64,000 nucleotides of DNA, from NCBI GenBank assembly GCA_050015375.1, contig JBEKBN010000006.1, positions 454-64,453 on the forward strand, written 5' to 3'. How positions within the stretch are numbered: position 1 is the first letter of the stretch; each line of letters opens with the position of its first letter. The translations under genes and the position numbers were made by a program. The notes below the pieces were generated by a model that saw only the letters and a list, made by a program, of their open reading frames with translations, had not been told where the DNA came from and ran no database searches. Origin of the DNA: Minisyncoccia bacterium. Lineage in GTDB: Bacteria > Patescibacteriota > Minisyncoccia > 2-02-FULL-40-12 > IGHO2-01-FULL-4-A. Shown here piece after piece: positions 11,103 through 60,049 of the stretch.

Positions 11103-12254
11103 ATGAAATATCGCGATCCATTGTATGGGGAATGGGAATTACCACCGGTTATTAAAGAATTGGTCCAATCTCGAGCGATGGACAGATACCGGAAGATCAC
11201 CATGTCTTTGTTGCCAAATTCCATGGAACCGCTGGGGACAATTCCAAGCCGATTTCATCATGGAATGGGCGTCTGTTTTTTGGCCCAGGTGGTCGTTGGA
11301 AATAGCATCTCATGGCCCGAAGCAGTTTTCGATCCTTTGGTACTGTTGGTTGCTTCACTGCTTCACGATATCGGCAATCCGTCTTTTCCGCATTTGTCTG
11401 AACCATTTTTAATAGAATTTTGGGGTAAAAATGGTGAAACATTCGCCGCGGACATTATCGCCGGTACGGATATTCCGGAAATTCTCGAGAAATATGATAT
11501 TCCAATCGAAAATGTTCTTGATTTCATTGCCGGAACATTAAGGCCGTATTCAGATGTTCTGAACGGTTCGCTCGATCTCGATAATCTGGACACTCTCCGC
11601 TATGATTATTTCGCGAAATTGGGTGGAATTGACTACGACCCGGTCAAGATCGCCGGAAGTTTCCGGTTTAAAAATAACCGCTGGGTTTTGGATAAAAAAT
11701 GCCAAAGCAATGTTGCCGCATGGAAAATGAATCGGGGAATGGTCTACCGTAAGATTTACAGTTCTCAACATTTGTCTGTGGTTTCAATGGTGCATCGGGC
11801 GCTTGAACTCGCGTTTTTAAAAGGCGAGCTGAACCACGATTTTTTCTTCCTGAATGACGAAGAGGCGGTCAATTTCCTTCGAACCAAATGCAATCCAAAA
11901 ACGGCTAAACTGATGGATATGGCGACGAGATGGCAGTGGTATGATCTGGCTTACGATTATCAGACGACAAATCCCAACCAATGGTTGATTAAAGCATCAA
12001 CTGGCTGGCGAAGCAGGAGGGCCTTGGCTGATGCGATCTGTTTGGACCTGCATTTGTTGCGTGAAAACGTCTGTGTTTATATCGACCGAGGGAGAGACAC
12101 GAGAAGGATCAAAATCCCATTTAGCGACGGGAAAAACCTTGTATTCGATGATGAAGTCGAGATTCCGATTTATCGAATAAAAGTATTTATGGATCCATCC
12201 ATTGGTTACACGAGAAACGATATTAAAGAAATTATTGATGACCTCATCAACTAG
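11103..12254 (+). CDS. HD-domain phosphohydrolase-like protein
   Basis: H...LLHDIGNPSFPH...D pattern typical of the HD superfamily. Confidence 0.6.
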   Translation: MKYRDPLYGEWELPPVIKELVQSRAMDRYRKITMSLLPNSMEPLGTIPSRFHHGMGVCFLAQVVVGNSISWPEAVFDPLVLLVASLLHDIGNPSFPHLSEPFLIEFWGKNGETFAADIIAGTDIPEILEKYDIPIENVLDFIAGTLRPYSDVLNGSLDLDNLDTLRYDYFAKLGGIDYDPVKIAGSFRFKNNRWVLDKKCQSNVAAWKMNRGMVYRKIYSSQHLSVVSMVHRALELAFLKGELNHDFFFLNDEEAVNFLRTKCNPKTAKLMDMATRWQWYDLAYDYQTTNPNQWLIKASTGWRSRRALADAICLDLHLLRENVCVYIDRGRDTRRIKIPFSDGKNLVFDDEVEIPIYRIKVFMDPSIGYTRNDIKEIIDDLIN

Positions 12255-12311: not shown

Positions 12312-12875
12312 ATGTCTTGGCAAATCTGTAAGCCGAATTCTGTTCCCCCACTTTTTGAGTTGCCCCAAAAGTGGGGGAGGCGATCATTTATCTGGTCCCT
12401 CGGTTACCCTCGGGATCTAGCGTCTCTTCCCCCACTTTTTAAGTTGCCCTAAAAGTGGGGGACACGGACTTGCACCGGGCAGGGTTTAGCGCGCATCCAT
12501 GTCGCCATGGAGCGGTCCCGTTCGGGGCCTTTTCACCCGTGATCCGCTTGCGCGGACTCGGAATAGTTTCTGTGCCACTTTCCCTGAATTTTGATAAATA
12601 ACTTTTGTCTTAAGAACAAAAACTATCCATCTTATATTCGGTGGCCATTAGCCACTGCCCTGCTTACGCAATCACCAACTGCTAATCTCTAATCTCAAAT
12701 AAAACCATTGGCGATCTTAGTTAACAATTAATGATTGCGTAAGCGGTGTTCGGACTTTCCTCCCTAAAACATTTTGCTTTCGCAAAATGTTCGGGCGATC
12801 AATTCGCAAAGCGAATTGATTTAGCCCCAAATCCAATAAGAATTCGTAGAGTAATCACCCGATTTACCAGGACTT
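12312..12875 (-). ncRNA. rnpB: RNase P RNA (bacterial type A-like) with an extended helix and twin hairpin insertions
   Basis: Reverse complement carries GGGAGGAAAGUCCGAAC (P4 5'), CAGGGCAG, AGUGGCACAGAAAC, CGCGCAAGCGGAUCACGGGUGAAAAGG, CUAAACCCUGCCCGGUGCAAG and ACAGAAUUCGGCUUACAG (J/P4 3'). These align with E. coli M1 RNA. The 5' and 3' ends are approximate. Confidence 0.8.
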
Positions 12876-19891: not shown

Positions 19892-20983
19892 GTGAAAATC
19901 GCATTGGTTCAGGACTATCTTGTCGAATACGGCGGGGCCGAGAGGGTTCTTCAGGCGCTTTGCGAAATTTTTCCGGAGGCGCCGATCTACACTTTACTTT
20001 ATGATGAGAAAGCCAGCGGCCGGGTTTTTCGCGACCGCGAGATCCACACCTCCTTTATCCAAAAGATTCCTTTCGCCCGGCGACACCACCGATTATTCGC
20101 GGCTTTGATGCCTTTGGCCATCGAACAATTCGATCTGTCGGAATTTGATTTTGTTTTATCGAACTCGGCTTCCTTCGGCAAGGGCGTCATCACCAAACCC
20201 AAAACCACCCACATCAACTACTGCATGACCCCGACAAGATTTCTTTGGGACGACAGTCATCGTTTTATTGATGAGTTCAAATTGCCTTGGCTGATCAGAA
20301 AAATGACACCAGCCGTCATCGCTTATCTTCGGATCTGGGACAAAGAGGCCGCCTTGCGGGTGGACGAATTCGTCGCTATTTCCAACCATGTAAAAACCCG
20401 GATCGCCAAATATTATCAGCGCGACGCGAAAGTCATCACTCCGCCGATAGATGTCAGCAAATATCATATAAGCCCCGAAGTTGACGAATATTTTTTAATG
20501 GTCGGCCGCTTAGTTGCCTACAAACGCTTTGACCTGGCGATCCAGGTTTTCAACGCCATCGGCAAACCATTGAAGATCGTCGGCGATGGGCCGGAGCGAT
20601 ATCGGCTTGAAAAAATGGCCAAAAAAAATATCGAATTTCTCGGTCTTGTCTCCGATGATAAATTGCCCGGACTCTACAGCCGCGCTCAAGCGGTGATTTT
20701 CCCCCAGGAAGAGGATTTCGGTTTGGTGCCGCTGGAAGCGATGGCTTCGGGCCGGCCGGTCATCGCGTATCGCGCCGGCGGGGCGCTGGAAACGGTCATT
20801 GATGGCCGGACTGGAATATTTTTTGACGAGCAAACGGAAATCTCGATGGCTTTGGCCATCAGCAGATATTACGAAACCAAATTCAATCCCAACGTTATCC
20901 GGGCCCACGCTTTGGATTTCGACAAATCCATCTTCAAGGAGAAAATTCTCAAATTGCTTGCCCCCACACTCAATCGCGATTGA
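19892..20983 (+). CDS. family 4 (group 1) glycosyltransferase
   Basis: GTG start. GT-B fold with C-terminal motif FPQEEDFGLVPLEAMASGRPVIAYRAGG. The stop codon is supplied by a palindromic element. Confidence 0.85.
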   Translation: MKIALVQDYLVEYGGAERVLQALCEIFPEAPIYTLLYDEKASGRVFRDREIHTSFIQKIPFARRHHRLFAALMPLAIEQFDLSEFDFVLSNSASFGKGVITKPKTTHINYCMTPTRFLWDDSHRFIDEFKLPWLIRKMTPAVIAYLRIWDKEAALRVDEFVAISNHVKTRIAKYYQRDAKVITPPIDVSKYHISPEVDEYFLMVGRLVAYKRFDLAIQVFNAIGKPLKIVGDGPERYRLEKMAKKNIEFLGLVSDDKLPGLYSRAQAVIFPQEEDFGLVPLEAMASGRPVIAYRAGGALETVIDGRTGIFFDEQTEISMALAISRYYETKFNPNVIRAHALDFDKSIFKEKILKLLAPTLNRD

Positions 20984-20992
20984 GTGTGGGGG
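20961..20992. repeat. palindromic element CCCCCACACTCA-ATCGCGAT-TGAGTGTGGGGG (copy 1 of 5) at the GT4 gene 3' end
   Basis: Perfect 12-bp arms. The TGA of the right arm serves as the gene's stop codon. Family copies are at 25056, 55616, 58240 and 60021. Confidence 0.75.
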
Positions 20993-21048
20993 TTGATATG
21001 GGGATAAGCTCTTTTTTTCGCCCATCGTTTTGATGATATAATTAAAGC

Positions 21049-23559
21049 ATGCCTCCATCGCGGAATATTCTTGAGGCATTATTTGACATTCGACCGATAA
21101 CCAGATCGGGGTCTCTTGATTTTGAAAAAATCGGCAAGGTCAAAGGCCGCATTAACCTCAAGAAGAAAAAAATTGTTGAGATCGAGACAGTTTCGATCGT
21201 TAAAAAACCGCCATTAAAAAAAACATTGAGCCGCGAGGGTATTTCCAGAGAATTCGAAAGAACAATTGCCGAACCGGTGAATGTGGCCGTAGAGTTGGCC
21301 AGATTCGGCGGCAAGCTTCACGATTACGTCCGAAAAGAAAGACCGGTTGAGATCGAACCGCAGCCGGAGGAAAAGATCGTCGTCGAGAGTCGGGATCTGG
21401 AGAATTTCTGGAAAAGGGAAGACCTATTCGAACAAAGCGAAGCTGAGAGAGAAATTGAAACAGAAGCAGAACCCAAGATCGAACCCGAGATCGCTCTCGC
21501 CGTCGCCGAAAGTTACCACAGCCCAGCCGAAAGAGAGATCGAAGCCGTCCTGGATCTTTATAGAAGAAATAAAATTTCTGTCGTTTCATCGCCAAAGCCG
21601 GAAGAGGAAACTTTTCATCAAAAAAAACCGAAAACGATTCGCTACGCGATGATAGCCCTGGGATTTTTAGTGCTTTTGGGCGCGTCTTTCGCTTATCGGG
21701 GCGGAGAAGATCTGAAGAACAATGTCATGGTCAATGGCGGCAAAGCCGTCGCCAATTTGGAACAAGCCAAGGCGAATCTGGCTAATTTTAATTTTGCCAA
21801 CGCCGCCGACAATTTCGCTTCGGCCTATGACGATTTCGGCAGCGCTTCCGACAATCTCAACAGCATGGGCGCGTCGTTCTTGTCGAATTTCAGCGATCTG
21901 CCCGGACTCTCGAAGGTCAAATCAGCGAACAATTTGGTTTTGGCCGGCCAGCACATTTCCAAAGCCGGCGAGAACTTGGCTTTGGCGTTCAGCACTTTGT
22001 CGAAAACGAATTTTTTGGGCAACAACCCGCTTTCAAAATTGGTTTCCGAATTCAAACAAGTTTTGGTCAACGCCAACGCCAACATCACCGATGCTCAAAA
22101 TTTGGTCGCCGATATTGACGCCTCGGCCCTGCCGACCGACAAACAGCAGTTGTTCATTGATTTCAAAGCAAAAATTCCGGAATTTCAGCAATACATCGGC
22201 AATGCCATTGATTACTCCGATTTCCTGTCGGGCGTCATCGGGGGCGCGGGCAAGACCGAGAAAAAATATCTGATGCTTCTCCAAAACACCAGCGAGCTTC
22301 GGGCGACCGGCGGTTTTCCCGGTTCATATGCCCTGGTAACTTTTGAGAACGGTTCACTGAAAAGCGTCAGTGTTGACGATGTCTATAATATTGACGGCCA
22401 GTTAAAAGTTAATATCATTCCGCCGATCCCGCTTCAGGCGATAACGCCCAACTGGGGCATGCGGGACGCCAATTGGTTCGCTGATTTTCCGGCTTCGGCC
22501 AAAAAAGTGGAGGAATTTTACAAAATGGACACAGCCGGCGCCACCGGCACCGCCGGCGACGACGTTGATGGTGTGTTCTCCATTACGCCCCAGGTCATCG
22601 GCCAAATTCTGGATGTCATCGGCGGACTCGATATGCCCGCGTACGGAATAAAATTGGATTCAAAAAATTTCATCACCCAGATCCAGAGTCAGGTCGAATA
22701 CGGCGCCAACCGCTCCCAGCCCAAAACCATCGTCAAAGACCTTCAGCCGCTGTTATTCGCTAAACTTGCCGCCCAGGATTCCTCGAAGTGGGCCGACATT
22801 TTTAAAATTTTGGTTCAAGCCGTCGGCCAAAAACAAATTCTGGCGTATTTTAACGATGCCAAATTGGAGAACATGGCTCTTCAGAACGGTCTGGGCGGGG
22901 AGGTCAGAACAACGGCTGATGATTATTTGCAAATTGTTTTTTCGAATGTCAAAGGTTCAAAAACAGACGCCGTCATTGATAATAAATTTGATCTCAAGAC
23001 CGATTTGACGGGTGGCACGATAGCGAACACATTGACCATCACCCGGACCCACAACGGCGGCGACAGCCAGTATGGATTTTACAACAAGGTCAGTCCGACA
23101 TATGTCCGTGTCTACGCGCCGTTGGGCTCGGTTCTGGGAAGCGTGACTGGCGATTCCATCACCGATTATCGTCCTTTGATCGGCTACGCGGATTACAATT
23201 TTAAAACCGACCCGAATCTGGGCGCGGTTGAAGATACCACCATTCACCCGTTCAAAGGCGTGGATGTTTTTCAGGAATCGGGTAAAACGGTTTTTGGTTT
23301 TTGGCTGGTCTTGGATCCGAAACAAACCAAATCGGTCACTGTCAGCTACGTCTCGCCGGTTCCCGTGAATACCGGCGGTTATAGCTTGCTTTGGCAAAAA
23401 CAATCAGGCACCGGTAGTGACCCGATATCATTTCAACTGACCTTGCCCGAGGGCGAAAAGATCGCGAGCGCGTCCGACAATTCAACGATTGCCGGAAACA
23501 AATTGAATATAAATTCCGACCTCTCGGTTGACAGGGAAATAAATCTGCAAATCAAATAG
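21049..23559 (+). CDS. large membrane-anchored protein (DUF4012-like) with an acidic EPEIE-repeat N-terminal region
   Basis: 836 aa with a cytoplasmic E/P-rich repeat region, one TM (IALGFLVLLGASF) and a large extracytoplasmic domain containing the ELRATGGFPGSY motif. The family assignment is tentative. Confidence 0.6.
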   Translation: MPPSRNILEALFDIRPITRSGSLDFEKIGKVKGRINLKKKKIVEIETVSIVKKPPLKKTLSREGISREFERTIAEPVNVAVELARFGGKLHDYVRKERPVEIEPQPEEKIVVESRDLENFWKREDLFEQSEAEREIETEAEPKIEPEIALAVAESYHSPAEREIEAVLDLYRRNKISVVSSPKPEEETFHQKKPKTIRYAMIALGFLVLLGASFAYRGGEDLKNNVMVNGGKAVANLEQAKANLANFNFANAADNFASAYDDFGSASDNLNSMGASFLSNFSDLPGLSKVKSANNLVLAGQHISKAGENLALAFSTLSKTNFLGNNPLSKLVSEFKQVLVNANANITDAQNLVADIDASALPTDKQQLFIDFKAKIPEFQQYIGNAIDYSDFLSGVIGGAGKTEKKYLMLLQNTSELRATGGFPGSYALVTFENGSLKSVSVDDVYNIDGQLKVNIIPPIPLQAITPNWGMRDANWFADFPASAKKVEEFYKMDTAGATGTAGDDVDGVFSITPQVIGQILDVIGGLDMPAYGIKLDSKNFITQIQSQVEYGANRSQPKTIVKDLQPLLFAKLAAQDSSKWADIFKILVQAVGQKQILAYFNDAKLENMALQNGLGGEVRTTADDYLQIVFSNVKGSKTDAVIDNKFDLKTDLTGGTIANTLTITRTHNGGDSQYGFYNKVSPTYVRVYAPLGSVLGSVTGDSITDYRPLIGYADYNFKTDPNLGAVEDTTIHPFKGVDVFQESGKTVFGFWLVLDPKQTKSVTVSYVSPVPVNTGGYSLLWQKQSGTGSDPISFQLTLPEGEKIASASDNSTIAGNKLNINSDLSVDREINLQIK

Positions 23560-23630: not shown

Positions 23631-25460
23631 ATGCAAAACATCCGCAATTTTTGTATAATTGCTCACATAGACCATGGCAAAAGCACCTTAGCCGACCGGC
23701 TTTTAGAATTGACGGGCACAATTGAAAAGCGCAAAATGCACGAACAATTTCTGGACCAGATGGAATTGGAGCGTGAAAGAGGGATTACCATAAAACTCCA
23801 ACCCGTCCGCATGCAATACGGCGAATATATTTTGAATTTAATAGATACGCCGGGCCATGTGGATTTCACCTACGAAGTTTCTCGTTCGCTGGCGGCGGTG
23901 GAGGGTGCGATTTTACTTGTGGATGCCGCCAAAGGCGTTCAAGCCCAGACACTGGCCAATTTGCATTTGGCGCAAAGACAGAATTTGGTCATTATTCCGG
24001 TCATCAACAAAATTGATCTACCCAATGCCAGAGTGGCCGAAGCCGAAGAAGAAATTTCCAATTTGCTTGCCGTTGAACCGGACGAAATTATCAAGATTTC
24101 CGCCAAGACCGGTGAAGGCGTGGAGAAAGTTCTTGAAGCGGTTGTCGAAAAAATTCCCCCGCCATCTACTCACTACTCACTACCAACTACCAACTATCCT
24201 CGCGCCCTGATTTTTGATTCCGCTTTTGACGCTTACAAAGGCGTTGTCGCTTATGTCAGGATTTTTGACGGCAACTTCCGGGCCGGAGACAAAATTAAAC
24301 TTTTCGCTTCCAAAGCCGAAGCCGAGATAATCGAAGTTGGTCAGTTTAAACCCGCCTTGAGCAAAACCGATTCTATCGGCGAAGGTGAGATCGGCTATAT
24401 CGCCACCGGTTTGAAAAATCCCGGCGATGTCCGCGTTGGTGATACGGTTTTCTCTACAAACTATAAACCACAAACTACAAACTTTTCACCCCTTCCCGGC
24501 TACAAAGAACCGATGCCGGTGGTTTTCGCCAGTTTTTTTCCGGAAAAAGGGGAAGATTATGATCTGCTGAAAGACGCGCTGGGAAAACTGAAATTGACCG
24601 ATGCCTCGCTGACTTATGAACCGGAATCTTCACCAGCCCTCGGCCGGGGTTTTCGCCTTGGCTTTCTGGGTATGCTCCACACCGAGATCATCAGTGAGCG
24701 GTTGCGCCGGGAATTCAAATTGTCGCTGATAATTTCCTCGCCGTCGGTGGAATATCACATTTTGAAAAAGAACGGCCAAGAAATTCCCATCCGTTCGGCA
24801 TCAGAGATGCCCAATCCGAGTTATATTGATAAAATTTTCGAACCGACGGTTGTGCTGGAATTGTTGAGCCCATCTGAATATCTCGGTTCATTGATGAAAC
24901 TTCTTTCCGAAATGCGAAGCTCTTATCTAGCCACTGATTATTTGACCAAGGAAATCGTGATTTTAAAATACAAAGTCCCGCTGACTGAAATTGTGACCGA
25001 TTTTTATGACAAACTGAAAAGCGTCAGTTCCGGTTACGCTTCGATGAGTTATTCACCCCCACACTCATTAGATGAGTGTGGGGGCAAGCAGGATGGCTAT
25101 GAGGAATCTGATCTGGTTCGGCTGGATATTTTGGTGGCCGGGGATTTGGTTGAACCGTTTTCGAGAATGGTTCCGAGATCGCGCGTTCATGACGAAGGCA
25201 AGAGAATTGTCGAGAAGTTGAAGAAAATAATTCCGCGGCAATGGTTCGCGGTGGCGATCCAAGCGGCCATCGGCGGGAAAATAATCGCTCGGGAAACCAT
25301 CAGCGCTTTGCGAAAAGATGTTACCGGTTATCTCTACGGCGGGGATATTACCCGCAAGAAAAAATTATTGGAGAAGCAAAAGAGGGGGAAGGCGAGGATG
25401 AAAGAGGAAGGCAAGGTGAATATTCCGCAGAATGTGTTTCTGGAGATGCTGAAAAAGTAG
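23631..25460 (+). CDS. lepA: elongation factor 4 (LepA)
   Basis: IRNFCIIAHIDHGKSTLADRLL...DTPGHVDF and a C-terminus matching E. coli LepA. Contains three in-frame repeat insertions. Confidence 0.92.
   Translation: MQNIRNFCIIAHIDHGKSTLADRLLELTGTIEKRKMHEQFLDQMELERERGITIKLQPVRMQYGEYILNLIDTPGHVDFTYEVSRSLAAVEGAILLVDAAKGVQAQTLANLHLAQRQNLVIIPVINKIDLPNARVAEAEEEISNLLAVEPDEIIKISAKTGEGVEKVLEAVVEKIPPPSTHYSLPTTNYPRALIFDSAFDAYKGVVAYVRIFDGNFRAGDKIKLFASKAEAEIIEVGQFKPALSKTDSIGEGEIGYIATGLKNPGDVRVGDTVFSTNYKPQTTNFSPLPGYKEPMPVVFASFFPEKGEDYDLLKDALGKLKLTDASLTYEPESSPALGRGFRLGFLGMLHTEIISERLRREFKLSLIISSPSVEYHILKKNGQEIPIRSASEMPNPSYIDKIFEPTVVLELLSPSEYLGSLMKLLSEMRSSYLATDYLTKEIVILKYKVPLTEIVTDFYDKLKSVSSGYASMSYSPPHSLDECGGKQDGYEESDLVRLDILVAGDLVEPFSRMVPRSRVHDEGKRIVEKLKKIIPRQWFAVAIQAAIGGKIIARETISALRKDVTGYLYGGDITRKKKLLEKQKRGKARMKEEGKVNIPQNVFLEMLKK
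24166..24200. repeat. heptamer tract (CTACTCA x2, CTACCAA x2, CTATCCT) in frame inside lepA, encoding STHYSLPTTNYP
   Basis: Five 7-nt units with a CTA anchor. Absent from E. coli LepA at the equivalent PAPQGDPDAPLQ position. Confidence 0.65.
24454..24488. repeat. heptamer tract (CTACAAA/CTATAAA/CCACAAA/CTACAAA) in frame inside lepA, encoding TNYKPQTTNF
   Basis: Same unit as the tpiA tract. About 7 extra residues relative to E. coli LepA. Confidence 0.65.
25056..25084. repeat. palindromic element CCCCCACACTCA-TTAGA-TGAGTGTGGGGG (copy 2) inserted in frame in lepA, encoding SPPHSLDECGG
   Basis: Perfect 12-bp arms with a 5-nt loop. Adds about 11 residues relative to E. coli LepA between GYAS and SDLV. 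Confidence 0.75.
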
Positions 25461-31473: not shown

Positions 31474-31517
31474 ATAACATGTAGATATTGACCATATGGT
31501 CAATATCTACATGTTAT
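31474..31517. promoter_or_regulatory. 44-bp perfect palindrome (ATAACATGTAGATATTGACCAT|ATGGTCAATATCTACATGTTAT), putative operator
   Basis: Perfect dyad 30 bp upstream of the PaaX-like gene, in a divergent region shared with arsR. A near-copy is at 32111-32138. Confidence 0.6.
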
Positions 31518-31546
31518 TGTTTTATAGTTTCTGTTATTATGTATTC

Positions 31547-32113
31547 ATGAAGGCGATAAGAAGAGGAACCCTAGCTTTTAAAATTTTAAAAGGCATTGGT
31601 CTAACGGGTTTGTTTTTAATAAGCATGTCGAACCCGCGTTTTGGGGTTCAGTTATTGACGGGATTTAAAGAATATAACAAAAGGGAGAAACAAAAATTCA
31701 GAGAATCGTTATATTATTTGAAAAAAAGAGGATTGGTAAAAATCATAGAAAACAGTAGCGGCGGCTTTACGGCCAAATTGTCAAAGACCGGAGAAAAAAT
31801 GTTGGAATCTATCGACATTGATTGTCTTGAATTGAAAAATAAGGAATTTGATGGAAAATGGCGCGTGGTTATCTTTGATGTTCCGGTCAGATTGAATATT
31901 AAAAGACACGCTTTTACGGAACGACTGAAAACTCTGGGTTTTATCATGGTTCAAAGAAGTGTATGGATTTGTCCGTTTAGGTGCAGAAAAGAACTGGCGA
32001 TGTTAACCCAATTTTACGAAATTGAGAAATACGTCACATATTTAGAAACATCTTTTGTGGATAACGAAGAAGCGTGGAAAAAAGAGTTTTCACTAATCAA
32101 ACTGGTGGCTTAG
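31547..32113 (+). CDS. PaaX-like regulator: N-terminal winged helix plus a C-terminal Cas2-fold domain
   Basis: SLYYLKKRGLVKIIE (wHTH), then GKWRVVIFDVPVRLNIKRHAFTERLKTLGFIMVQRSVWICPF, which resembles the Cas2/PaaX_C motif (YDV..KRR...L...G.R.Q.SV). Confidence 0.5.
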   Translation: MKAIRRGTLAFKILKGIGLTGLFLISMSNPRFGVQLLTGFKEYNKREKQKFRESLYYLKKRGLVKIIENSSGGFTAKLSKTGEKMLESIDIDCLELKNKEFDGKWRVVIFDVPVRLNIKRHAFTERLKTLGFIMVQRSVWICPFRCRKELAMLTQFYEIEKYVTYLETSFVDNEEAWKKEFSLIKLVA

Positions 32114-32138
32114 ATATTCACCATATGGTCAATATCTA
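32111..32138. promoter_or_regulatory. imperfect 28-bp palindrome (TAGATATTCACCAT|ATGGTCAATATCTA), second copy of the operator-like dyad
   Basis: One central mismatch relative to the 31474 dyad. Overlaps the stop codon of the PaaX-like gene. Confidence 0.5.
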
Positions 32139-36412: not shown

Positions 36413-39400
36413 TTGTTTATGAAAATAAACAAACTTGGGGGGGGGCTTAAGTGGTCGATTTTCGCAACTCTTTTAGCAACCGCTCTAGTAGGCGGATTTT
36501 TTGTACACAATGCCAAGGCGACTGTTAGCACCTGTTCTGATATCACCCTTGGTGTGACTCAAATCACTGCTATCCAAACCTATGCCACCGCTGACAATAC
36601 TTTTGCCGACGGCTGGAAATGGGTTTTCAATGTTACCGTTCCGACTTGCCAAACACTTCTTCAAATGAGATTCGGTGACTGGGTTGGAACCGCTGGCACC
36701 ATTCCAGCCGCGACAAATATTCAATTTTATTCTAATCAATCTACAAATGCAGCCGATGAGGCGCACGCAATAATTATCAGTGCCGCTAATACATATAGTG
36801 GTTTGATGATCCTTTCTGGTGCTGATCTTGATGGGTCAACACCCGGCACCCAGATCCAAATAACAGTTGAAGCGAGAGTTCCAATTGATTCAGCTGGTGG
36901 TTCTTACTCGACAAGTTATGGCATACAATCGAATCCTGCACCGACCGTTCTATTCGTTCTCCCTATCGGTAACATCAATGTTGCTAATGGCACCGCTCTT
37001 GATGCTGTAGGTTTGCCGGCTAATGCTACCGTAGGTTTGAGCAACGGAAACACTCAATTAATGGCAGTCGTTTGGGATGGTGGTACGCCAACTTATGACG
37101 GCACAACAGCTGGCACCTATGCTTTTACAGGTGCATTGACTTTACCTGCTGGTGTTACTAATCCGGACGGCAAAACAGCCAACGTAAACGTAATTGTGGA
37201 ACCAATACCTACCCACACCATTACCTCCTCTGTTGTAGGCGCATCTGTCTTTGGTCCGAAACACGGCACGATTTCTCCTCTCGGTGCAACGACCGTGAAT
37301 GATGGCGACAGCCAGACCTACACGATTACGCCCGATACCGGCTACCAGATTCTTGAGCTTAAAGTGGACGGTGTTTCCACAACGCCGGCCGACAGTTATA
37401 CTTTCACCAATGTCACAACTGACCATACCATTGCCGTGAGCTTTGCCCCGATTACTTATACCTTAACCTATTCCGCCGGAGCCCATGGTTCCATTGTTGG
37501 AACTTCGCCCCAGGCAGTAAATTACGGCGCTGATGGAACAGCCGTGACTGCGACGCCAGCCGAGGGTTATCATTTCGTAGGTTGGAGCGATCAGTCAACA
37601 ACTAATCCGAGAACCGACAACGATGTAACCGGCAATATTGATGTCACTGCCAGTTTTGCAGTTAACCAATATACAATTACTTTTGGTTCAAATGGTGGCT
37701 CAGCCGTAGCTTCCATAACTCAGGATTATGGCTCACCGGTTACTCCACCAGACGATCCAACTCGAGCAGGTTATACCTTCGCCGGTTGGGTTCCAACAGT
37801 TCCGGCAACGATGCCATTAGGCGGAGCGAGTTTAGTTGCCCAGTGGACTGCTGTTGTTGCACCAATCACCCACACTCAAAAGGATCTGACGACTTGGGTT
37901 CCGATTCAGGGTGGAATAACTGCCGATGTAACAATTTCAACAGTAAATAATAAATTCCACGCAGACGGAGTTCCAACTGGATATACTTTGGTGTATTACC
38001 CTAATGTTGGAACTTATGATACCTACACTGGAGAAGTTTATCCTGTAGAGGGCACTAATATGGATCTTCCAATGTCAGATGATTTGAATCGCGGTAAAGA
38101 AGATTACTGCAATAATGGATTTAATCCACACGCAATTCACTGTGATGGCGCTAAGTTGTGGCTTGTTCCAACCGAAGACATATCAACAACAATTAATTCT
38201 GATGGAAGCCAGACATTGGTTGGAGATTGGAATACGATCGCTCCGAATATTTTGTTCGAGACAAATCTGATAACTTATCAAGCAACTCCGATCACTCACA
38301 CCCAAAAGGATCTGAACACCTGGGCTCCACTTCCAAATGGAATAACTGCCGATGTTACATATGACCTGACCGGAGATACTTTCCAAGCGACCGGAGTTCC
38401 ACCTGGATATACTTTGGTGTATTATCCTAAACCCGCAACTTGGACCGGATTGGTCTATTCCGTCATTGGTAATAGCATGACCCTTCCAATGCCAGGTGAT
38501 TTGAATGGTAGTCCATCATCAGATTACTGTACCGTTAGAAATAGTGAGGGGAATTTGGAAAATCCGCATGAAATAATTTGCCAAGGAGCCGCGTTGTGGC
38601 TTGTTCCAACGGGTGAATTAACAGATAACCACGATGGGACTTATACAATTAATTGGGGCACTGCTTCTGATATTTTGTTCGAGACAGACCTGATAAATTA
38701 CACAGCTCCGACTTCTACCCCAAGCGCTAATCTTATTCTCACCGCTCCAGATGCCACAACTATTAATCAATCTGCTTTAGTTCCTGAAACGAGCAACGGA
38801 ATACCCACTGGCGGAAACTCAACAGTTGATACTGCCATCAATGGCCTTAGCCCGATTGCGGTGAGGTTGCAGAATACCGGCGATGCCGCTTCTGCTAATG
38901 TTCGCATCAGCCCGATTGGCGACGCTTCTGGGCACATTCAGTTATGGGCAAAAGATACTTTAGGTAATTGGTATGACATCAATGTTACTGGCTGGGGGCC
39001 AGCCGAAGGTTTTCCAGTGCCAGCCCCATACGATGCCACTACTAATGTCTATGCGATTTCCGACGAAGTAGGATCTTATGACATGATAGCTAATTTGATT
39101 TTGGTAAGTAATTCATCACTCGTTGCGCACACAAAGGGAATAATTACCGTTGCCCCTGCCCCGACCCTTTTGTTTGATACCGGCATCACTGATGGTTCCA
39201 CTATCTTACCGGGTACACTTGCAACTCAGTTCACGATTACAACTACGGGTGTCCCGGGTACGATGCACACGCTTGGGTTAACGGGCACCACAGCAACTCC
39301 AGCTCTTGCAGATGGCAATTATGACTTTAAGCTTGTGGCAACCTCAGACGTGCAAGCCGCTTTGACTTCTTATTTTGGAGCTAAGGCAGGATGGACTTCG

Positions 39401-55256: not shown

Positions 55257-56543
55257 ATGACCGTTTCTGATATAATTAAACAAATGGAGGAAAAAGAAAA
55301 TGAATTGAAATTCCCCAACGGGTTTTTGTGGGGGACGGCCACGTCAAGCTATCAGATAGAAGGTGGAATAAATAATTGCGACTGGGCCCAAGCGAATCGC
55401 GGTCCCTCGACAAGTTCAGGACATCAGATTCCTGATGCTGGGCGCGCTTGCGATAGTTACAATAAATACGAGGAGGATTTTGATATTGCCAAATCGCTTG
55501 GCCAGAACGCCCACCGTTTCTCTATAGAATGGGCGCGGATCGAGCCGGAAGAGGGAAAATTCGACGAGAAAGAAATCGAGCATTATAAAAAAGTGCTGGA
55601 CGCCTTGCGAACTCGCCCCCACACTCAAGATTTGAGTGTGGGGGGAACGGGATTGGAACCATTCGTGACCCTTTGGCATTTCACGCTTCCGGTTTGGTTC
55701 GCGAAAATGGGCGGTTTCGAAAATCCGAAATCACCGGAAATATTTTCCCGATATTGCGAATTTGTCGTTGGCAAAATGGGGGATAGAGTTCACCCTGTTA
55801 AATCCGGCGAAGCCGGTGCCGCGGAGCGGCAATTTAACAGGGTAAAATTCTGGGTAACTATAAACGAACCGATGGTTTATGCCTCGAATGGTTACCGAAA
55901 AGGTCAATGGCCGCCGTTTGAAAAAAATATTTTCAGGTTCATGAAGGTTATCAAAAATCTAATCATGTCGCACAATCTAGCATATGACAAAATCAAGAAC
56001 ATTGATCCTTCGGCTCAGATCGGCATCGCTAAAAATAATATAAATTTTGAGGCAAATTGGAACCCAATCAATCGCCTCTTGTCAAGCTTTCTGAATTTTT
56101 TCTGGAATCGCAGATTTTTGAATAAAATTTCACAGGATTTCATCGGTTTGAATTATTATTTCCACAAAAAGTTCGGGGATAGGGCGAAGTATCCGAAATC
56201 CGACATGGGTTGGGATATTTATCCGAAAGGAATTTATAATTTGCTGATGGAACTGAAAAAATATGGTAAACCGGTTTACATCACCGAAAACGGATTGGCG
56301 GACAAAGAAGACAAACAACGCGCCGATTTCATCCGTGAACATTTGAAATGGGTTTCGAGAGCGATCCGGGATGGCTCTGACTGCCGCGGATATTTTTATT
56401 GGTCGCTTCTGGATAATTTTGAGTGGGCGGAGGGTTACAAACAAAAATTCGGTTTGGTGGAAATTAATTTTGAAACAATGGAAAGAAAGATCAGGAATTC
56501 AGCGTGGGAATTTGCAAAAATTTGTAAAAATAACGAAATATGA
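55257..56543 (+). CDS. glycoside hydrolase family 1 (beta-glucosidase-like) carrying two in-frame palindromic insertions
   Basis: FLWGTATSSYQIEGG, TINEP (acid/base) and ITENGLA (nucleophile). Carries insertions RTRPHTQDLSVGG and HPVKSGEAGAAERQFNRV relative to canonical GH1. Confidence 0.88.
   Translation: MTVSDIIKQMEEKENELKFPNGFLWGTATSSYQIEGGINNCDWAQANRGPSTSSGHQIPDAGRACDSYNKYEEDFDIAKSLGQNAHRFSIEWARIEPEEGKFDEKEIEHYKKVLDALRTRPHTQDLSVGGTGLEPFVTLWHFTLPVWFAKMGGFENPKSPEIFSRYCEFVVGKMGDRVHPVKSGEAGAAERQFNRVKFWVTINEPMVYASNGYRKGQWPPFEKNIFRFMKVIKNLIMSHNLAYDKIKNIDPSAQIGIAKNNINFEANWNPINRLLSSFLNFFWNRRFLNKISQDFIGLNYYFHKKFGDRAKYPKSDMGWDIYPKGIYNLLMELKKYGKPVYITENGLADKEDKQRADFIREHLKWVSRAIRDGSDCRGYFYWSLLDNFEWAEGYKQKFGLVEINFETMERKIRNSAWEFAKICKNNEI
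55616..55644. repeat. palindromic element CCCCCACACTCA-AGATT-TGAGTGTGGGGG (copy 3), in frame in GH1
   Basis: Perfect 12-bp arms. Encodes RPHTQDLSVGG, inserted before the conserved GxEPFVTLxHxxLP block. Confidence 0.75.
55793..55842. repeat. second, distinct GC-rich palindromic insertion (CCCTGTTAAAT-28 nt-ATTTAACAGGG), in frame in GH1
   Basis: 11-bp perfect arms. The loop itself holds two hairpins (CCGGC-GAA-GCCGG and GCCGC-GGA-GCGGC). Encodes about 16 extra residues between GDRV and KFWVTINEP. Confidence 0.65.
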
Positions 56544-57427: not shown

Positions 57428-58509
57428 AGAAGCACAAAAAATATTTTTCAATTCCCATTATCCTTTTCTTGATCCTTTTGGTTTTAACCTTGGCTTGGAA
57501 TTTGCTTTCCATCAGGCCGGTTCCCGAAAAAGTAAATTACGGCGTTTCGTTCAGCGTTTTTCATTCCAACGAACTCAATCTGGATTGGAAAAAAACATAT
57601 TTGGCGATCTTAGACGATCTTAAGGTCAGGAACTTGCGGCTTACCGCTCATTGGCCGCTGACCGAGCCGGCCGACGGCAAATACGATTTCTCAGAATTGG
57701 ATTTTCAGATAAACGAAGCCGATAAACGCGGCGCGACCTATATTCTGGCCGTCGGCCGGCGCCTGCCCGGCTGGCCGGAATGCCATGTGCCGGATTGGGT
57801 TATGAATCAAGAATCACAAATCACGAATCAAGGTGAAAAAACTGATTTTGAGAACCAAAAGTTATTGGAATATATTCAGACGACCGTTGAGCGTTACAAA
57901 AATTCCCCCGGTCTGAAATATTGGCAAGTCGAGAATGAACCGTTCCTAGGATTTTTCGGCCGTTCGAGCTGCCAATTGACCGACGAGAATTTTTTCAAAC
58001 AGGAGATCGCTCTTGTCCATAAACTCGATCCGACCCATCCGGTTCTGGCGACCGACAGCGGCGAGTTCGGCTATTGGTATCAGGCCTACCGCGACGGTGA
58101 TGTTTTCGGCACCTCCTTGTATCTGTATGTTTGGTGGCGGGCGCTTGGCATCGGCCCCTTGCGTTATCCCATCGGGCCGTCGTTTTTCCGAGTGAAGCAA
58201 AATGTGGTTGATTTTATCGGTTGTGTCTTGGGCGATTCACCCTCACACTCAATTTTTGAGTGTGAGGGCAAGCCGACAATTCTCATTGAACTGGAAGCCG
58301 AGCCCTGGCTTTTAACACCGATCGTTGACGCGCCGATGGCGACTCTCCTTGACCGGATGGGGATTGATAAATTCGAAACCATGATCCAAACCGCCAAAGA
58401 AGCCGGTTTTGGCGACCAATATCTCTGGGGCGCCGAGTGGTGGTATTGGATGGAACAAAATGGCCATCCGGAATTTTGGCAGGCGGCGAAGCAACTTTTT
58501 AACCAATAA
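57424..58509 (+). CDS. glycoside hydrolase, clan GH-A (GH5/GH113-like)
   Basis: Signal/TM N-terminus, then YWQVENEPF (acid/base NEP) and LIELEAEPW (nucleophile Glu). The family is not resolved. Confidence 0.55.
   Translation: MKKHKKYFSIPIILFLILLVLTLAWNLLSIRPVPEKVNYGVSFSVFHSNELNLDWKKTYLAILDDLKVRNLRLTAHWPLTEPADGKYDFSELDFQINEADKRGATYILAVGRRLPGWPECHVPDWVMNQESQITNQGEKTDFENQKLLEYIQTTVERYKNSPGLKYWQVENEPFLGFFGRSSCQLTDENFFKQEIALVHKLDPTHPVLATDSGEFGYWYQAYRDGDVFGTSLYLYVWWRALGIGPLRYPIGPSFFRVKQNVVDFIGCVLGDSPSHSIFECEGKPTILIELEAEPWLLTPIVDAPMATLLDRMGIDKFETMIQTAKEAGFGDQYLWGAEWWYWMEQNGHPEFWQAAKQLFNQ
58240..58268. repeat. palindromic element variant CCCTCACACTCA-ATTTT-TGAGTGTGAGGG (copy 4), in frame in the GH-A hydrolase gene
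   Basis: Both arms carry a compensatory change (C to T paired with G to A), so pairing is preserved. Encodes SPSHSIFECEGKP. Confidence 0.75.
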
Positions 58510-59956: not shown

Positions 59957-59963
59957 TCCATCG

Positions 59964-60001
59964 AAGAGCGGCCCGCTCGCGAGCGAGCGGGCCGCTCTTC
60001 A
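59964..60001 (+). terminator. GC-rich 17-bp perfect stem-loop after htrA (no U-tract)
   Basis: GAAGAGCGGCCCGCTCG-CGAG-CGAGCGGGCCGCTCTTC. Probably a transcript-end or processing structure. Confidence 0.4.
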
Positions 60002-60020: not shown

Positions 60021-60049
60021 CCCCCACACTCATGCATGAGAACGGGGGC
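60021..60049. repeat. degenerate intergenic copy (copy 5) of the CCCCCACACTCA palindromic element
   Basis: CCCCCACACTCATGCATGAGAACGGGGG has a left arm identical to the family and a decayed right arm. Confidence 0.5.

Follow-up and report, generated by a model that had tools for sequence, protein, structure and literature searches.

REP sequences and REPINs are dispersed palindromes of 20–40 bp with hairpin potential, a side effect of which is the stabilization of the upstream mRNA, and in Neisseria and Haemophilus a repeated 10–12-mer (DUS/USS) occurs in inverted pairs that serve as terminator stems. Known bacterial MITEs measure roughly 100 bp and up. Examples are to be found in PMC10969869, where these elements (Correia, ERIC, Chunjie, QMITE) are described as non-coding, present in many copies and bounded by terminal inverted repeats (TIRs) and short flanking repeats; they lie mostly between genes, often just 3' of them, are occasionally fused in frame to a gene, and form families of size variants. 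Rickettsia palindromic elements (RPEs) are palindromic units inserted in frame in unrelated housekeeping genes, where they add a peptide and leave the protein intact, and they also occur in intergenic regions (PMC10969869).

The palindrome studied here (E1) closes a glycosyltransferase gene of the GT4 family in a Patescibacteria genome. It is one of five copies (E1–E5) of a family with consensus C5ACACTCA-loop-TGAGTGTG5 in the window, by which we mean the whole 64-kb stretch of DNA that was analysed. The features at the gene end are as follows.

19892–20983, + strand: GT4-family glycosyltransferase gene, 363 amino acids (Pfam, orthologues, AlphaFold model).
20961–20992, unstranded: E1, perfect 32-bp palindrome, the family copy closing the GT4 gene; absent from loci L064, L066, L067 and L068.
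20981–20983, + strand: TGA, the GT4 stop codon, with which the right arm of E1 begins.
20993–21003, + strand: TTGATATGGGG, a degenerate third stretch resembling an arm (compare TTGAGTGTGGGG), immediately 3' of E1, read from the sequence.
21005–21007, + strand: in-frame TAA followed by GCTC, as in L066; probably the ancestral GT4 stop, displaced 33 nt downstream.
21034–21042, + strand: TGaTATAAT, putative extended −10 box of the next gene (DUF4012, ATG at 21049), after the sigma-70 consensus.

From 20961 to 20992 the window reads CCCCCACACTCA-ATCGCGAT-TGAGTGTGGGGG, that is left arm, centre and right arm. The arms are perfect 12-mers and, since the centre is itself self-complementary, the palindrome extends as 16+16 over all 32 bp. 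An earlier note on this DNA had described perfect 12-bp arms around a loop at this place, a description borne out both by the sequence and by a shuffle test, in which the site was the sole match in the window with three mismatches allowed and none was found in 100 shuffles. The same note took E1 for a copy of a repeated element, and rightly so: with up to one mismatch the window contains 10 matches to the 11-mer arm, where 0.5 are expected, and 9 of the 10 belong to palindromic pairs.

The identity of the gene is clear from three Pfam domains, all above their cut-offs: Glycos_transf_1 (PF00534, 98.8 bits), Glyco_trans_1_4 (PF13692, 90.2 bits) and Glyco_transf_4 (PF13439, 28.9 bits). Its reading frame ends at 20981–20983, which confirms the claim that the TGA opening the right arm is the GT4 stop. 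Recoding of TGA as in Gracilibacteria and Absconditabacteria (genetic code 25) was considered and rejected, because 15 of 54 long ORFs of this genome end in TGA, and SecY, LepA and similar conserved proteins are full length under table 11 with no internal TGA; TGA is a genuine stop in this genome. The last residues of the protein, A-P-T-L-N-R-D (A357–D363), are read from E1, the G of the alanine codon (20960) being the only tail base outside the palindrome. In the AlphaFold model (mean pLDDT 91) the last helix spans residues 345–356 and ends at L356, while the element-encoded tail A357–D363 takes a coil conformation in which residues 361–363 have a pLDDT below 50; judging from this model, the new tail probably runs off the last helix, outside the fold, and is neutral.

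Comparison with orthologous genes addresses the origin of this tail. The earlier note held that orthologues sharing the C-terminus without a palindrome in their DNA would speak against an origin in the element; the APTLNRD tail was found in 0 of 119 GT4 orthologues, and no palindrome is present at the gene end in the DNA of the four orthologous loci, the closest of which shares 89% amino acid identity. At these four loci the GT4 genes end in ...LFST(L/S)(K/Q)* and the next gene follows after 25–35 nt; relative to them the window carries 33 extra nt. The −10 box of the next gene is conserved in L064 and L066–L068 (GTATAATTA), and E1 leaves it untouched. Because the tail is absent from the 119 orthologues and the palindrome from the four loci, the alignments support a lineage-specific insertion as the source of the GT4 stop codon and tail. 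A complication is that the orthologue tail DNA TTTTCCACACTTAAATAA, which encodes ..FSTLK*, matches the arm core CCACACTCAA at 9 of 10 positions, a resemblance expected by chance at about 3e-5 per site and not predicted by random insertion. For this reason the residues 'TL' may already have belonged to the ancestral tail, and it is ambiguous where exactly the insertion begins on its left side. The claim that APTLNRD and the terminus derive from the element thus agrees with the orthologues as regards the tail as a whole, but may not extend to its 'TL'.

The other copies in the window are the following.

25056–25084, unstranded: E2, loop TTAGA, in frame in lepA, adding 11 amino acids (SPPHSLDECGG..).
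55616–55644, unstranded: E3, loop AGATT, in frame in the GH1 beta-glucosidase gene, adding 11 amino acids (PHTQDLSVGGT).
58240–58268, unstranded: E4, symmetric arm variant CCCTCACACTCA / TGAGTGTGAGGG, loop ATTTT, in the GH42-like hydrolase gene.
60021–60048, unstranded: E5, decaying intergenic copy with a TGCA centre and three mismatches in the right arm, downstream of the HtrA-like protease gene.

E2, E3 and E4 are 33-nt in-frame insertions. Of the 120 LepA orthologues listed, 117 could be read at the E2 site, and all of these lack the insert; E3 corresponds to an 11-residue gap relative to PDB entries 1vff and 6z1h; and precisely the 11 residues added by E4 are missing from all 44 orthologues displayed, out of 58 aligned. 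Since the nearest orthologues at E2 and E4 are just 67–72% identical, these empty sites cannot be reconstructed at the nucleotide level. Beyond the window, additional sequence of the same genome (L185, L187, L188) contains no further short copies and one 110-bp relative. The RNase P RNA gene contains two copies of a related palindrome, as C5AC..GTG5 hairpins at 12344–12378 and 12428–12462, and RNA genes may therefore also be targets; an Rfam scan of the window at gathering thresholds returned RNase P and tRNAs only.

In a genome scan the family was found at 63 loci, 55 of them with titles of Patescibacteria lineages (Yanofsky-, Saccharibacteria, Falkow-, Azam-, Lloyd- and Nomurabacteria), and a metagenome scan yielded at least 115 further loci. 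About 150 further copies were seen outside the window, nearly all from Patescibacteria; a viral origin was rejected, with a single match in the IMG/VR viral contigs. The arm sequence is conserved across distant lineages, a conservation that is partly an artefact of sampling the copies by exact-arm search. The centre varies from 0 to 12 nt, most often TGCA, while the arms are retained. The outermost arm pair covaries between C:G and T:A and is complementary in 132 of 146 copies, and arm variants are mostly symmetric (16 symmetric and 8 asymmetric positions). In 64 of 146 copies the 12-bp arms lie between perfect direct repeats of 4 bp (null mean 8.6, maximum 19 in 1000 permutations), with z = 5.6–8.2 for the flank match at the four positions; a 6-bp target duplication was discarded, as matches are much less frequent at the outer two positions than at the inner four. 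These repeats are of the type YNAR (TAAA, TCAA, CAAG, TGAA and others, at least eight different sequences). They occur in none of 12 curated intragenic copies vs 64 of 134 other copies (p = 0.001), and E1 itself has no clean repeat, its flanks CTTG and TTGA having only TTG in common. Seven copies in four different genes, E2 and E4 included, have common TTCA..CAAG flanks, which simple target duplication does not explain. Several contigs break off close to a copy.

Four longer elements of 110–145 bp, one of them from the window's own species, are non-coding and carry the same C5ACAC..GTGTG5 termini, two of the four with 4-bp repeats (TTCA, CTCA). Among about 190 loci there was neither an autonomous IS with the same termini and a transposase nor any arm pair 0.06–3.5 kb apart that encloses an ORF. 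A partner gene (transposase or RAYT) beside the copies was likewise rejected, as an all-against-all BLAST of the flanking ORFs returned housekeeping families only, and no gene family was found to recur within 2.5 kb of the copies; since no gene recurs next to the copies, the element is taken to be non-autonomous. Lone arms are almost absent, which rules against pairs of DNA uptake sequences. No description of the arm sequence, or of such palindromes in Patescibacteria/CPR, was found in the full-text literature, and the family is apparently undescribed.

The effect of a copy on a gene depends on its frame. Two frames of the arms are open (PPHS..ECGG and PHTQ..SVGG) and are used by in-frame copies in the genes for LepA, GH1, the GH42-like hydrolase, KsgA, FolD, TypA, Tgt, GT2 and HolA; the third contains TGA and is thus tolerated only at the extreme 3' end of a gene, the case represented by E1. 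With a 5-nt centre the length becomes 29+4 = 33 nt, and 8 of 23 copies with such a centre are intragenic, vs 4 of 98 with a 4-nt centre (Fisher p = 1.6e-4). Five ORFs of 150 codons or more terminate within a copy, so that the supply of a stop codon is a recurrent outcome. The peptides predicted to carry the E1 tail and the inserts read ...ILKLLAPTLNRD, SPPHSLDECGGK, PHTQDLSVGGTGLEPF and SPSHSIFECEGKP.

The family can now be set against the systems described above. It resembles RPEs in the in-frame insertion of its copies into protein-coding genes and in its hosts, which are host-dependent bacteria with reduced genomes, but RPEs are about 100–150 bp long with a conserved peptide, while the present unit spans 28–32 bp plus 4 bp, shows no sequence similarity to them and belongs to the phylum Patescibacteria, not to Rickettsia. 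To our knowledge, 4-bp flanking repeats have not been described as a feature of RPEs. With bacterial MITEs it shares terminal inverted repeats (in E1 perfect 12-bp arms), short direct repeats at 64 of 146 copies (E1 not among them), a large number of non-coding copies that lie mostly between genes and often just 3' of one, occasional in-frame fusions and size variants of 110–145 bp, and also presence or absence between species, E1 being missing at the four orthologous loci, E2 and E4 in every orthologue examined. However, the 28-bp unit is several-fold shorter than a MITE, consisting almost only of two terminal repeats, the intragenic copies have no direct repeat and no parent IS was found. 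Like REPs the palindrome is dispersed and capable of forming a hairpin; unlike REPs and REPINs, which are extragenic, have a GTAG-type head, commonly form inverted doublets and flank a RAYT gene, it occurs in frame in nine named genes, from LepA to HolA, and is flanked by variable YNAR 4-mers, with no RAYT-type family recurring within 2.5 kb. As for IS200/IS605 elements, one subfamily has fixed TTCA..CAAG flanks, whereas 44% of the copies have identical 4-mers of several kinds on both sides. E1 shares with intrinsic terminators a G+C-rich perfect stem near a gene end, but has no U-tract, and family copies also lie within genes and in divergent intergenic regions. Finally, in contrast to uptake sequences, single arms almost never stand alone.

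On this evidence we consider it likely that E1 represents a 'TIR-only' mini-MITE, a short mobile palindrome that is non-autonomous and widespread in Patescibacteria, with transposition as the mechanism that we infer. The mobile unit would consist of two inverted 12-bp arms (C5ACACTCA and its complement) around a centre of 0–12 nt, and its integration would usually duplicate 4 bp of a YNAR target. After the split from the closest sampled relative, a copy would have reached fixation at the very 3' terminus of the GT4 gene. With the left arm in the GT4 frame giving P-T-L and the right arm opening with TGA, the native ..LFST(L/S)(K/Q) would thus have become ..LLAPTLNRD, and the old TAA would now lie in frame 33 nt further on. 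A unit of 28 bp may not move as such, because it is too short for its ends to synapse by looping, and the copies could be what is left of longer MITEs after collapse; the putative parent would have the terminal repeat CCCCCACACTCATGCAT. That the 28-bp palindrome, two 12-bp termini around a 4-bp self-complementary centre, is itself mobile is possible but doubtful; an enzyme shared across Patescibacteria would then have moved it into housekeeping proteins (LepA, KsgA, FolD, TypA, Tgt, HolA) and, in a related form, into peripheral helices of RNase P RNA. We know of no smaller transposable element.

Other readings are conceivable. One contests the mechanism and not the fact of insertion: the palindrome would move as a single-strand hairpin through an HUH/Y1 transposase (REP-RAYT or IS200/IS605-like 'peel and paste'), with insertion 3' of a tetranucleotide in the target and a second tetranucleotide, the element's own, at its opposite end. 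The unit is indeed one perfect hairpin; retained arms around a variable centre are easier to reconcile with recognition of a folded stem than with that of two half-sites at a distance; the covariation of the outermost pair and the prevalence of symmetric arm variants point the same way; and the TTCA|hairpin+CAAG subfamily resembles a fixed target with a fixed element end, a reading of the codons that yields the 33-nt in-frame insertions of E2, E3 and E4. Yet identical flanking tetranucleotides of at least eight sequences indicate a staggered DDE cut, not a guide-directed Y1; the symmetric variants (..CACCTA, ..CACTTA, ..CACCCA) equal the terminal repeats of distinct longer elements, so that hairpin selection is not needed; a conserved GTAG-type head is absent, no RAYT/TnpA gene recurs near the copies, and doublet (REPIN) arrangements are rare. 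We regard this alternative as unlikely. Less probable still is that E1 was copied, together with donor flanks, onto the pre-existing arm-like sequence TCCACACTTAA by gene conversion or template switching. Such an event would account for the resemblance of the orthologue tail DNA to the element (11/14 positions between TTTTCCACACTTAA and CTTGCCCCCACACTCAA, and 9/10 in the core), for the G5-CAAG(C) flank common to E1 (as reverse complement), E2, E4, KsgA and TypA, for the 4-bp repeat never being seen at intragenic copies, and for the degenerate third arm directly after E1. Nevertheless, homology-guided insertion found no general backing, as there is no excess of arm-like sequence beside copies (best 12-mer match 6.82 adjacent vs 6.78 at control distance; means, n = 130), copying of the loops from neighbouring host DNA was not significant (p = 0.08), and the resemblance was spotted after the fact at the one empty site close enough to judge.

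E1 could also have been kept, and its position selected, for a function as terminator, 3'-end stabilizer or binding site of a Patescibacteria protein. The earlier note proposed a stem-loop at the transcript end, and a strong stem is predicted for the RNA (core −27 kcal/mol; fold of 20930–21050 −45.3 kcal/mol, z = −5.4, whose outer pairs end next to a U7 run). Family-wide, 64 ORFs of 150 codons or more end no further than 60 nt upstream of a copy, seven stop codons fall in the flanking 4-mer, the arms are conserved across distant lineages, and in three diverged lineages the KsgA copy differs in its centre but keeps its arms perfect. But a terminator scan did not call E1, no T-run occurs within 2 nt of the stem (the nearest is 20 nt downstream), and the four orthologous loci are hairpin-free with their genes so closely spaced. 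With no U-tract behind the stem, a function as terminator finds no support; the stem-loop proposed for the transcript end is, on the predicted fold, a physical possibility only. The orientation of neighbouring genes is not distinctive either (convergent/co-directional/divergent 15/50/11 in intergenic regions hosting a copy vs 111/663/117 in copy-free ones, p = 0.16); copies lie also in divergent, promoter-side regions, and a dozen are intragenic, where termination would be harmful. That copies lie near stop codons is explained by the YNAR target (TAAA, TGAA) and by short intergenic regions, and arm conservation is in part an effect of the search. Selection for a function is, overall, as improbable as conversion. 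As to a chance palindrome or an assembly artefact, the derivation of the sequence from a metagenome assembly is the one point in its favour, whereas the shuffles gave no match, the identical E1 sequence is present in independent assemblies and samples (L065, L185, L186), and the roughly 150 related copies come from unrelated projects; its probability is negligible.

For the GT4 protein, the insertion means that the annotated C-terminus is real yet derived from the element, and probably irrelevant for function. The case also suggests a simple rule, with two frames of the element open and the stop-bearing frame confined to gene ends. The genomes of Patescibacteria are among the smallest and most streamlined of all bacteria, and mobile DNA is usually held to be scarce in them. 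A short palindrome common to several of their lineages would make a useful marker for recent changes in the genome; assemblies break at it, gene ends are rewritten by it, and conserved enzymes receive 11-residue loops. It is also a source of annotation errors and a handle for finding the enzyme that mobilizes it. If the 28-bp unit were itself mobile, these minimal genomes would regularly acquire new peptide loops, C-termini and RNA hairpins from it.

The element E1 (window 20961-20992) reads CCCCCACACTCA ATCGCGAT TGAGTGTGGGGG as left arm, centre and right arm; the arms are perfect 12-mers and, because the 8-nt centre is itself self-complementary, all 32 bp form a perfect palindrome. With up to 3 mismatches allowed, the pattern has this single site in the window and none in 100 dinucleotide-preserving shuffles. 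The glycosyltransferase (GT4) ORF that ends in it, 19892..20983 (+), encodes 363 amino acids, with Pfam domains Glycos_transf_1, Glyco_trans_1_4 and Glyco_transf_4 and the C-terminal residues ...KILKLL-APTLNRD; as the earlier note had read, the right arm opens with its stop codon (TGA, 20981-20983). This genome does use TGA for termination: 15 of 54 long ORFs close with it, and conserved proteins are full-length under table 11. A one-off assembly artefact is ruled out by identical DNA in independent records (ENA ERZ27250144, Logan SRR7028199). In the AlphaFold model of the protein (50 orthologues, mean pLDDT 91) the final helix stops at L356, while A357-D363 are coil, the final three with pLDDT below 50. 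This places the new tail outside the fold, and it is probably neutral.

Comparison with orthologues bears out the derivation of tail and stop codon from the element. The ending APTLNRD is absent from all 119 other GT4 orthologues, and a tail shared without the palindrome was not found. Conservation runs to ...FDKxIFKEKIxxL, followed by 2-15 variable residues; in the nearest clade (89-72% identity) the C-termini are ...LFSTSQ, ...LFSTLK or ...LFSTIK. At the four orthologous loci whose gene-end DNA was compared (L064, L066, L067, L068) there is no palindrome; the gene ends as TTG TTT TCC AC(A/T) nnn (A/C)A(A/G) TAA (...ACA CTT AAA TAA in L066), and 25-35 nt with a conserved GTATAATTA box separate the stop from the ATG of the same DUF4012 gene. 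The interval from AAATTG to ATAAGCTC is 33 nt longer in the window, where the GT4 frame, read on past the E1 stop (TGA GTG TGG GGG TTG ATA TGG GGA TAA), still meets a TAA at 21005-21007 that GCTC follows, as it does in L066. With the tail missing from the orthologues, the palindrome from the four loci, and this interval 33 nt longer in the window, stop codon and tail are a lineage-specific gain; quite probably a member of a mobile family was inserted in this lineage to give E1.

That E1 is one copy of a repeated element, also proposed earlier, agrees with a count of the arm 11-mer: with one mismatch allowed, the window has 10 occurrences where 0.5 are expected, and almost all of them form inverted pairs. 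The family has the form C5ACACTCA-loop-TGAGTGTG5.

Copies of the palindrome family in the window
E1, 20961-20992, centre ATCGCGAT, 3' end of the GT4 gene
E2, 25056-25084, centre TTAGA, within lepA
E3, 55616-55644, centre AGATT, within the GH1 gene
E4, 58240-58268, centre ATTTT, within a GH42-like gene, same change in both arms (CCCTC../..GAGGG)
E5, 60021-60048, centre TGCA, intergenic, right arm decayed

E2, E3 and E4 are in frame and stop-free within long ORFs. At the E2 site all 117 readable LepA orthologues (120 listed) have GYASMSY-EPxGY, and the window protein has GYASMSY-SPPHSLDECGGKQD-GY, 11 residues more; at the E4 site all 44 GH42-like orthologues displayed (58 aligned) have G-(D/K/E)-KP, and the window protein GD-SPSHSIFECEG-KP, exactly 11 more. 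Against PDB 1vff and 6z1h, an 11-residue gap faces the E3-encoded PHTQDLSVGGT, directly before the conserved G(I/L)xPxVTL strand of GH1. One LepA orthologue, P0127, carries a long unrelated insertion (PASEIDSSLRKQRQVPEETLPK...) at the exact loop that holds E2, which suggests a loop generally permissive for insertions.

Other palindromes occur in the window. A second in-frame extra segment of GH1 relative to PDB homologues (55786-55846, 15-18 residues, RVHPVKSGEAGAAERQFN) coincides with a different palindrome, found once in the window, with arms TTCACCCTGTTAAAT / ATTTAACAGGGTAAA and an inner CCGGC-GAA-GCCGG hairpin. A lone arm-like ACCCACACTCA at 37867-37880, read as ..ITHTQKDL.. in a 1212-aa surface-repeat protein gene, could be an intragenic copy that has decayed, or could match by chance. 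A perfect G+C-rich inverted repeat (59963-60000, 18-bp arms, GAAGAGCGGCCCGCTCGC..GCGAGCGGGCCGCTCTTC), directly 3' of an HtrA-like protease gene and 20 nt before E5, may be that gene's actual terminator. A PaaX-like regulator gene (31496..32113) has a perfect 44-bp palindrome centred on its start codon (31474-31517, ATAACATGTAGATATTGACCAT|ATGGTCAATATCTACATGTTAT) and a 28-bp version of it at the stop codon (32111-32138); the two are probably operator sites of the regulator. The RNase P RNA gene (12313-12810, (-); Rfam RF00010, 126 bits) has 498 nt against a 367-position model, with a 132-nt insertion near model position 90 and two near-identical palindromes (12344-12378 and 12428-12462, TCCCCCACTTTTT(G/A)AGTTGCCC(C/T)AAAAGTGGGGGA) at P16/P17-like and P19-like positions; their C5AC..GTG5 termini resemble those of the family, so a related element may have inserted into this structural RNA.

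With exact arms and a gap of 0-12 nt, 63 loci were collected from one genome per species, where fewer than one chance match is expected (an estimate that takes in the size of the collection, the length of the pattern and its 13 possible gaps). Patescibacteria-lineage titles account for 55 (Yanofsky-, Falkow-, Azam-, Lloyd- and Nomurabacteria, Saccharibacteria, Parcubacteria/Paceibacteria); the other 8 look like ordinary terminator stems. Metagenomes yielded at least 115 further loci and a viral collection one match. Several contigs break off at most a few dozen bases from a copy, which is typical of repeats. After removal of duplicates about 150 distinct copies were left. The centre has 4 nt in 98 of 152 (TGCA in 65) and 5 nt in 22; since centres are mostly self-complementary (TGCA, TATA, CGCG, AATT, GGATCC, and that of E1), the unit is usually a perfect palindrome throughout. 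The twelfth base pair is C:G or T:A, complementary in 132 of 146 copies. L040:2360-2442 holds a tandem pair, 15 nt apart and with the same 12-nt centre, and a 311-codon ORF terminates inside one of the two copies.

Immediately outside the 12-bp arms, 64 of 146 copies have a perfect 4-bp direct repeat (mean 8.6, maximum 19 with right flanks shuffled among copies), with per-position z-scores of 5.6-8.2 and far less matching at the next positions outward. Such repeats are the signature of staggered-cut integration. Their set is limited (TAAA/TTTA, TCAA/TTGA, CAAG/CTTG, TGAA/TTCA, CGAG, TTAA; roughly YNAR), and TAAA and TGAA include stop codons; in seven cases the flanking 4-mer holds the stop codon of the gene upstream. 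This accounts in part for the 64 long ORFs whose ends are no more than 60 nt from a copy. Longer relatives of 110-145 bp were also found.

Longer non-coding relatives
L021:1644-1787, C5ACAC...GTGTG5 termini
L087:4043-4171, C5ACAC...GTGTG5 termini, repeat TTCA
L149:2750-2887, C5ACAC...GTGTG5 termini, repeat CTCA
L188:3097-3206, 110 bp, C5ACAC...GTGTG5 termini, between rpsH and rplF

The first three measure 129-145 bp; the fourth, from the window's own species and about 0.4 kb upstream of the window start, has terminal inverted repeats of about 25 bp (CCCCCACACCTATCGG...). The symmetric arm variants of the short copies (..CACCTA, ..CACTTA, ..CACCCA) recur as variants of the terminal repeats in the longer elements, so that arm symmetry needs no hairpin selection. 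No recurrent protein family was found among the genes neighbouring the copies.

An insertion adds 24 + centre + 4 nt, that is 32 nt in the common form and 33 nt with a 5-nt centre, and the share of convincing intragenic copies is 8/23 for 5-nt centres vs 4/98 for 4-nt centres (Fisher p = 1.6e-4). Further hosts are KsgA, with the same site in three diverged lineages, FolD, TypA, Tgt, a GT2 and HolA (in a HolA-like gene of L174, two in-frame copies at 11638-11664 and 12100-12125 are 460 nt apart). The arm frames read PPHS..ECGG, PHTQ..SVGG and PTL.. followed by TGA. Intragenic copies use the first two; a copy in the third frame can survive only where loss of the downstream codons does no harm, as at E1. 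Such endings recur: five ORFs of at least 150 codons terminate inside a copy.

As for mechanism, we give about even chances to DDE-type transposition with 4-bp duplication. Fitting it less well, E1 has no clean 4-bp repeat (flanks CTTG/TTGA), and the repeat is present in 0/12 intragenic copies vs 64/134 others (p = 0.001). Seven copies (E2, E4, KsgA at three loci, TypA, L157) share the flanks TTCA..CAAG(C), and E1 on the opposite strand has TCAA..CAAGC. By our codon reading, on the assumption of a C in the third position of the Asp/Tyr codon that precedes the insert, E2 and E4 each consist of TTCA + a 29-nt hairpin directly 5' of CAAG; such an arrangement would fit an IS200/IS605-like enzyme for which both the target and the element end are fixed. 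There are also hints that E1 was copied onto a pre-existing arm-like site at the gene end: TTTTCCACACTTAA, the tail DNA of the orthologues, has 9/10 positions in common with the arm core (chance about 3e-5 per site), and a degenerate third arm TTGATATGGGG (20993-21003) lies directly 3' of E1. However, copies have no general excess of arm-like sequence beside them, and their centres do not derive from the flanks. The 28-bp unit may itself be mobile, or each copy may be what is left of a longer element after collapse at a self-complementary microhomology, for example ATGCAT.

The stem-loop that the earlier note considered possible at the transcript end is strong as predicted RNA (core -27 kcal/mol; 20930-21050 -45.3 kcal/mol, z = -5.4), but no T-run lies closer than 20 nt, and a terminator scan made no call at E1. 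No hairpin is present at the orthologous loci, where the spacer before the next gene is very short; in the window the downstream gene retains its own TGaTATAAT box (21034-21042). Across the family, intergenic regions with and without copies do not differ significantly in their mix of orientations (p = 0.16), and divergent regions are among the hosts. E1 thus probably does not act as an intrinsic terminator; a role in 3'-end protection is possible.

In behaviour the closest known elements are the Rickettsia palindromic elements, which likewise sit in frame within the housekeeping genes of a reduced genome (PMC10969869). In anatomy the closest are MITEs, with similar terminal inverted repeats, short direct repeats and size-variant relatives, although the mini-palindrome is several-fold shorter than the MITEs familiar to us. 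We know of no parent IS. The family lacks the defining features of REP/RAYT elements (extragenic position, GTAG head, partner gene) and those of intrinsic terminators. No published description was found in open-access full text, and this mini-palindrome family, spread across Patescibacteria and following a simple frame rule, is apparently undescribed.
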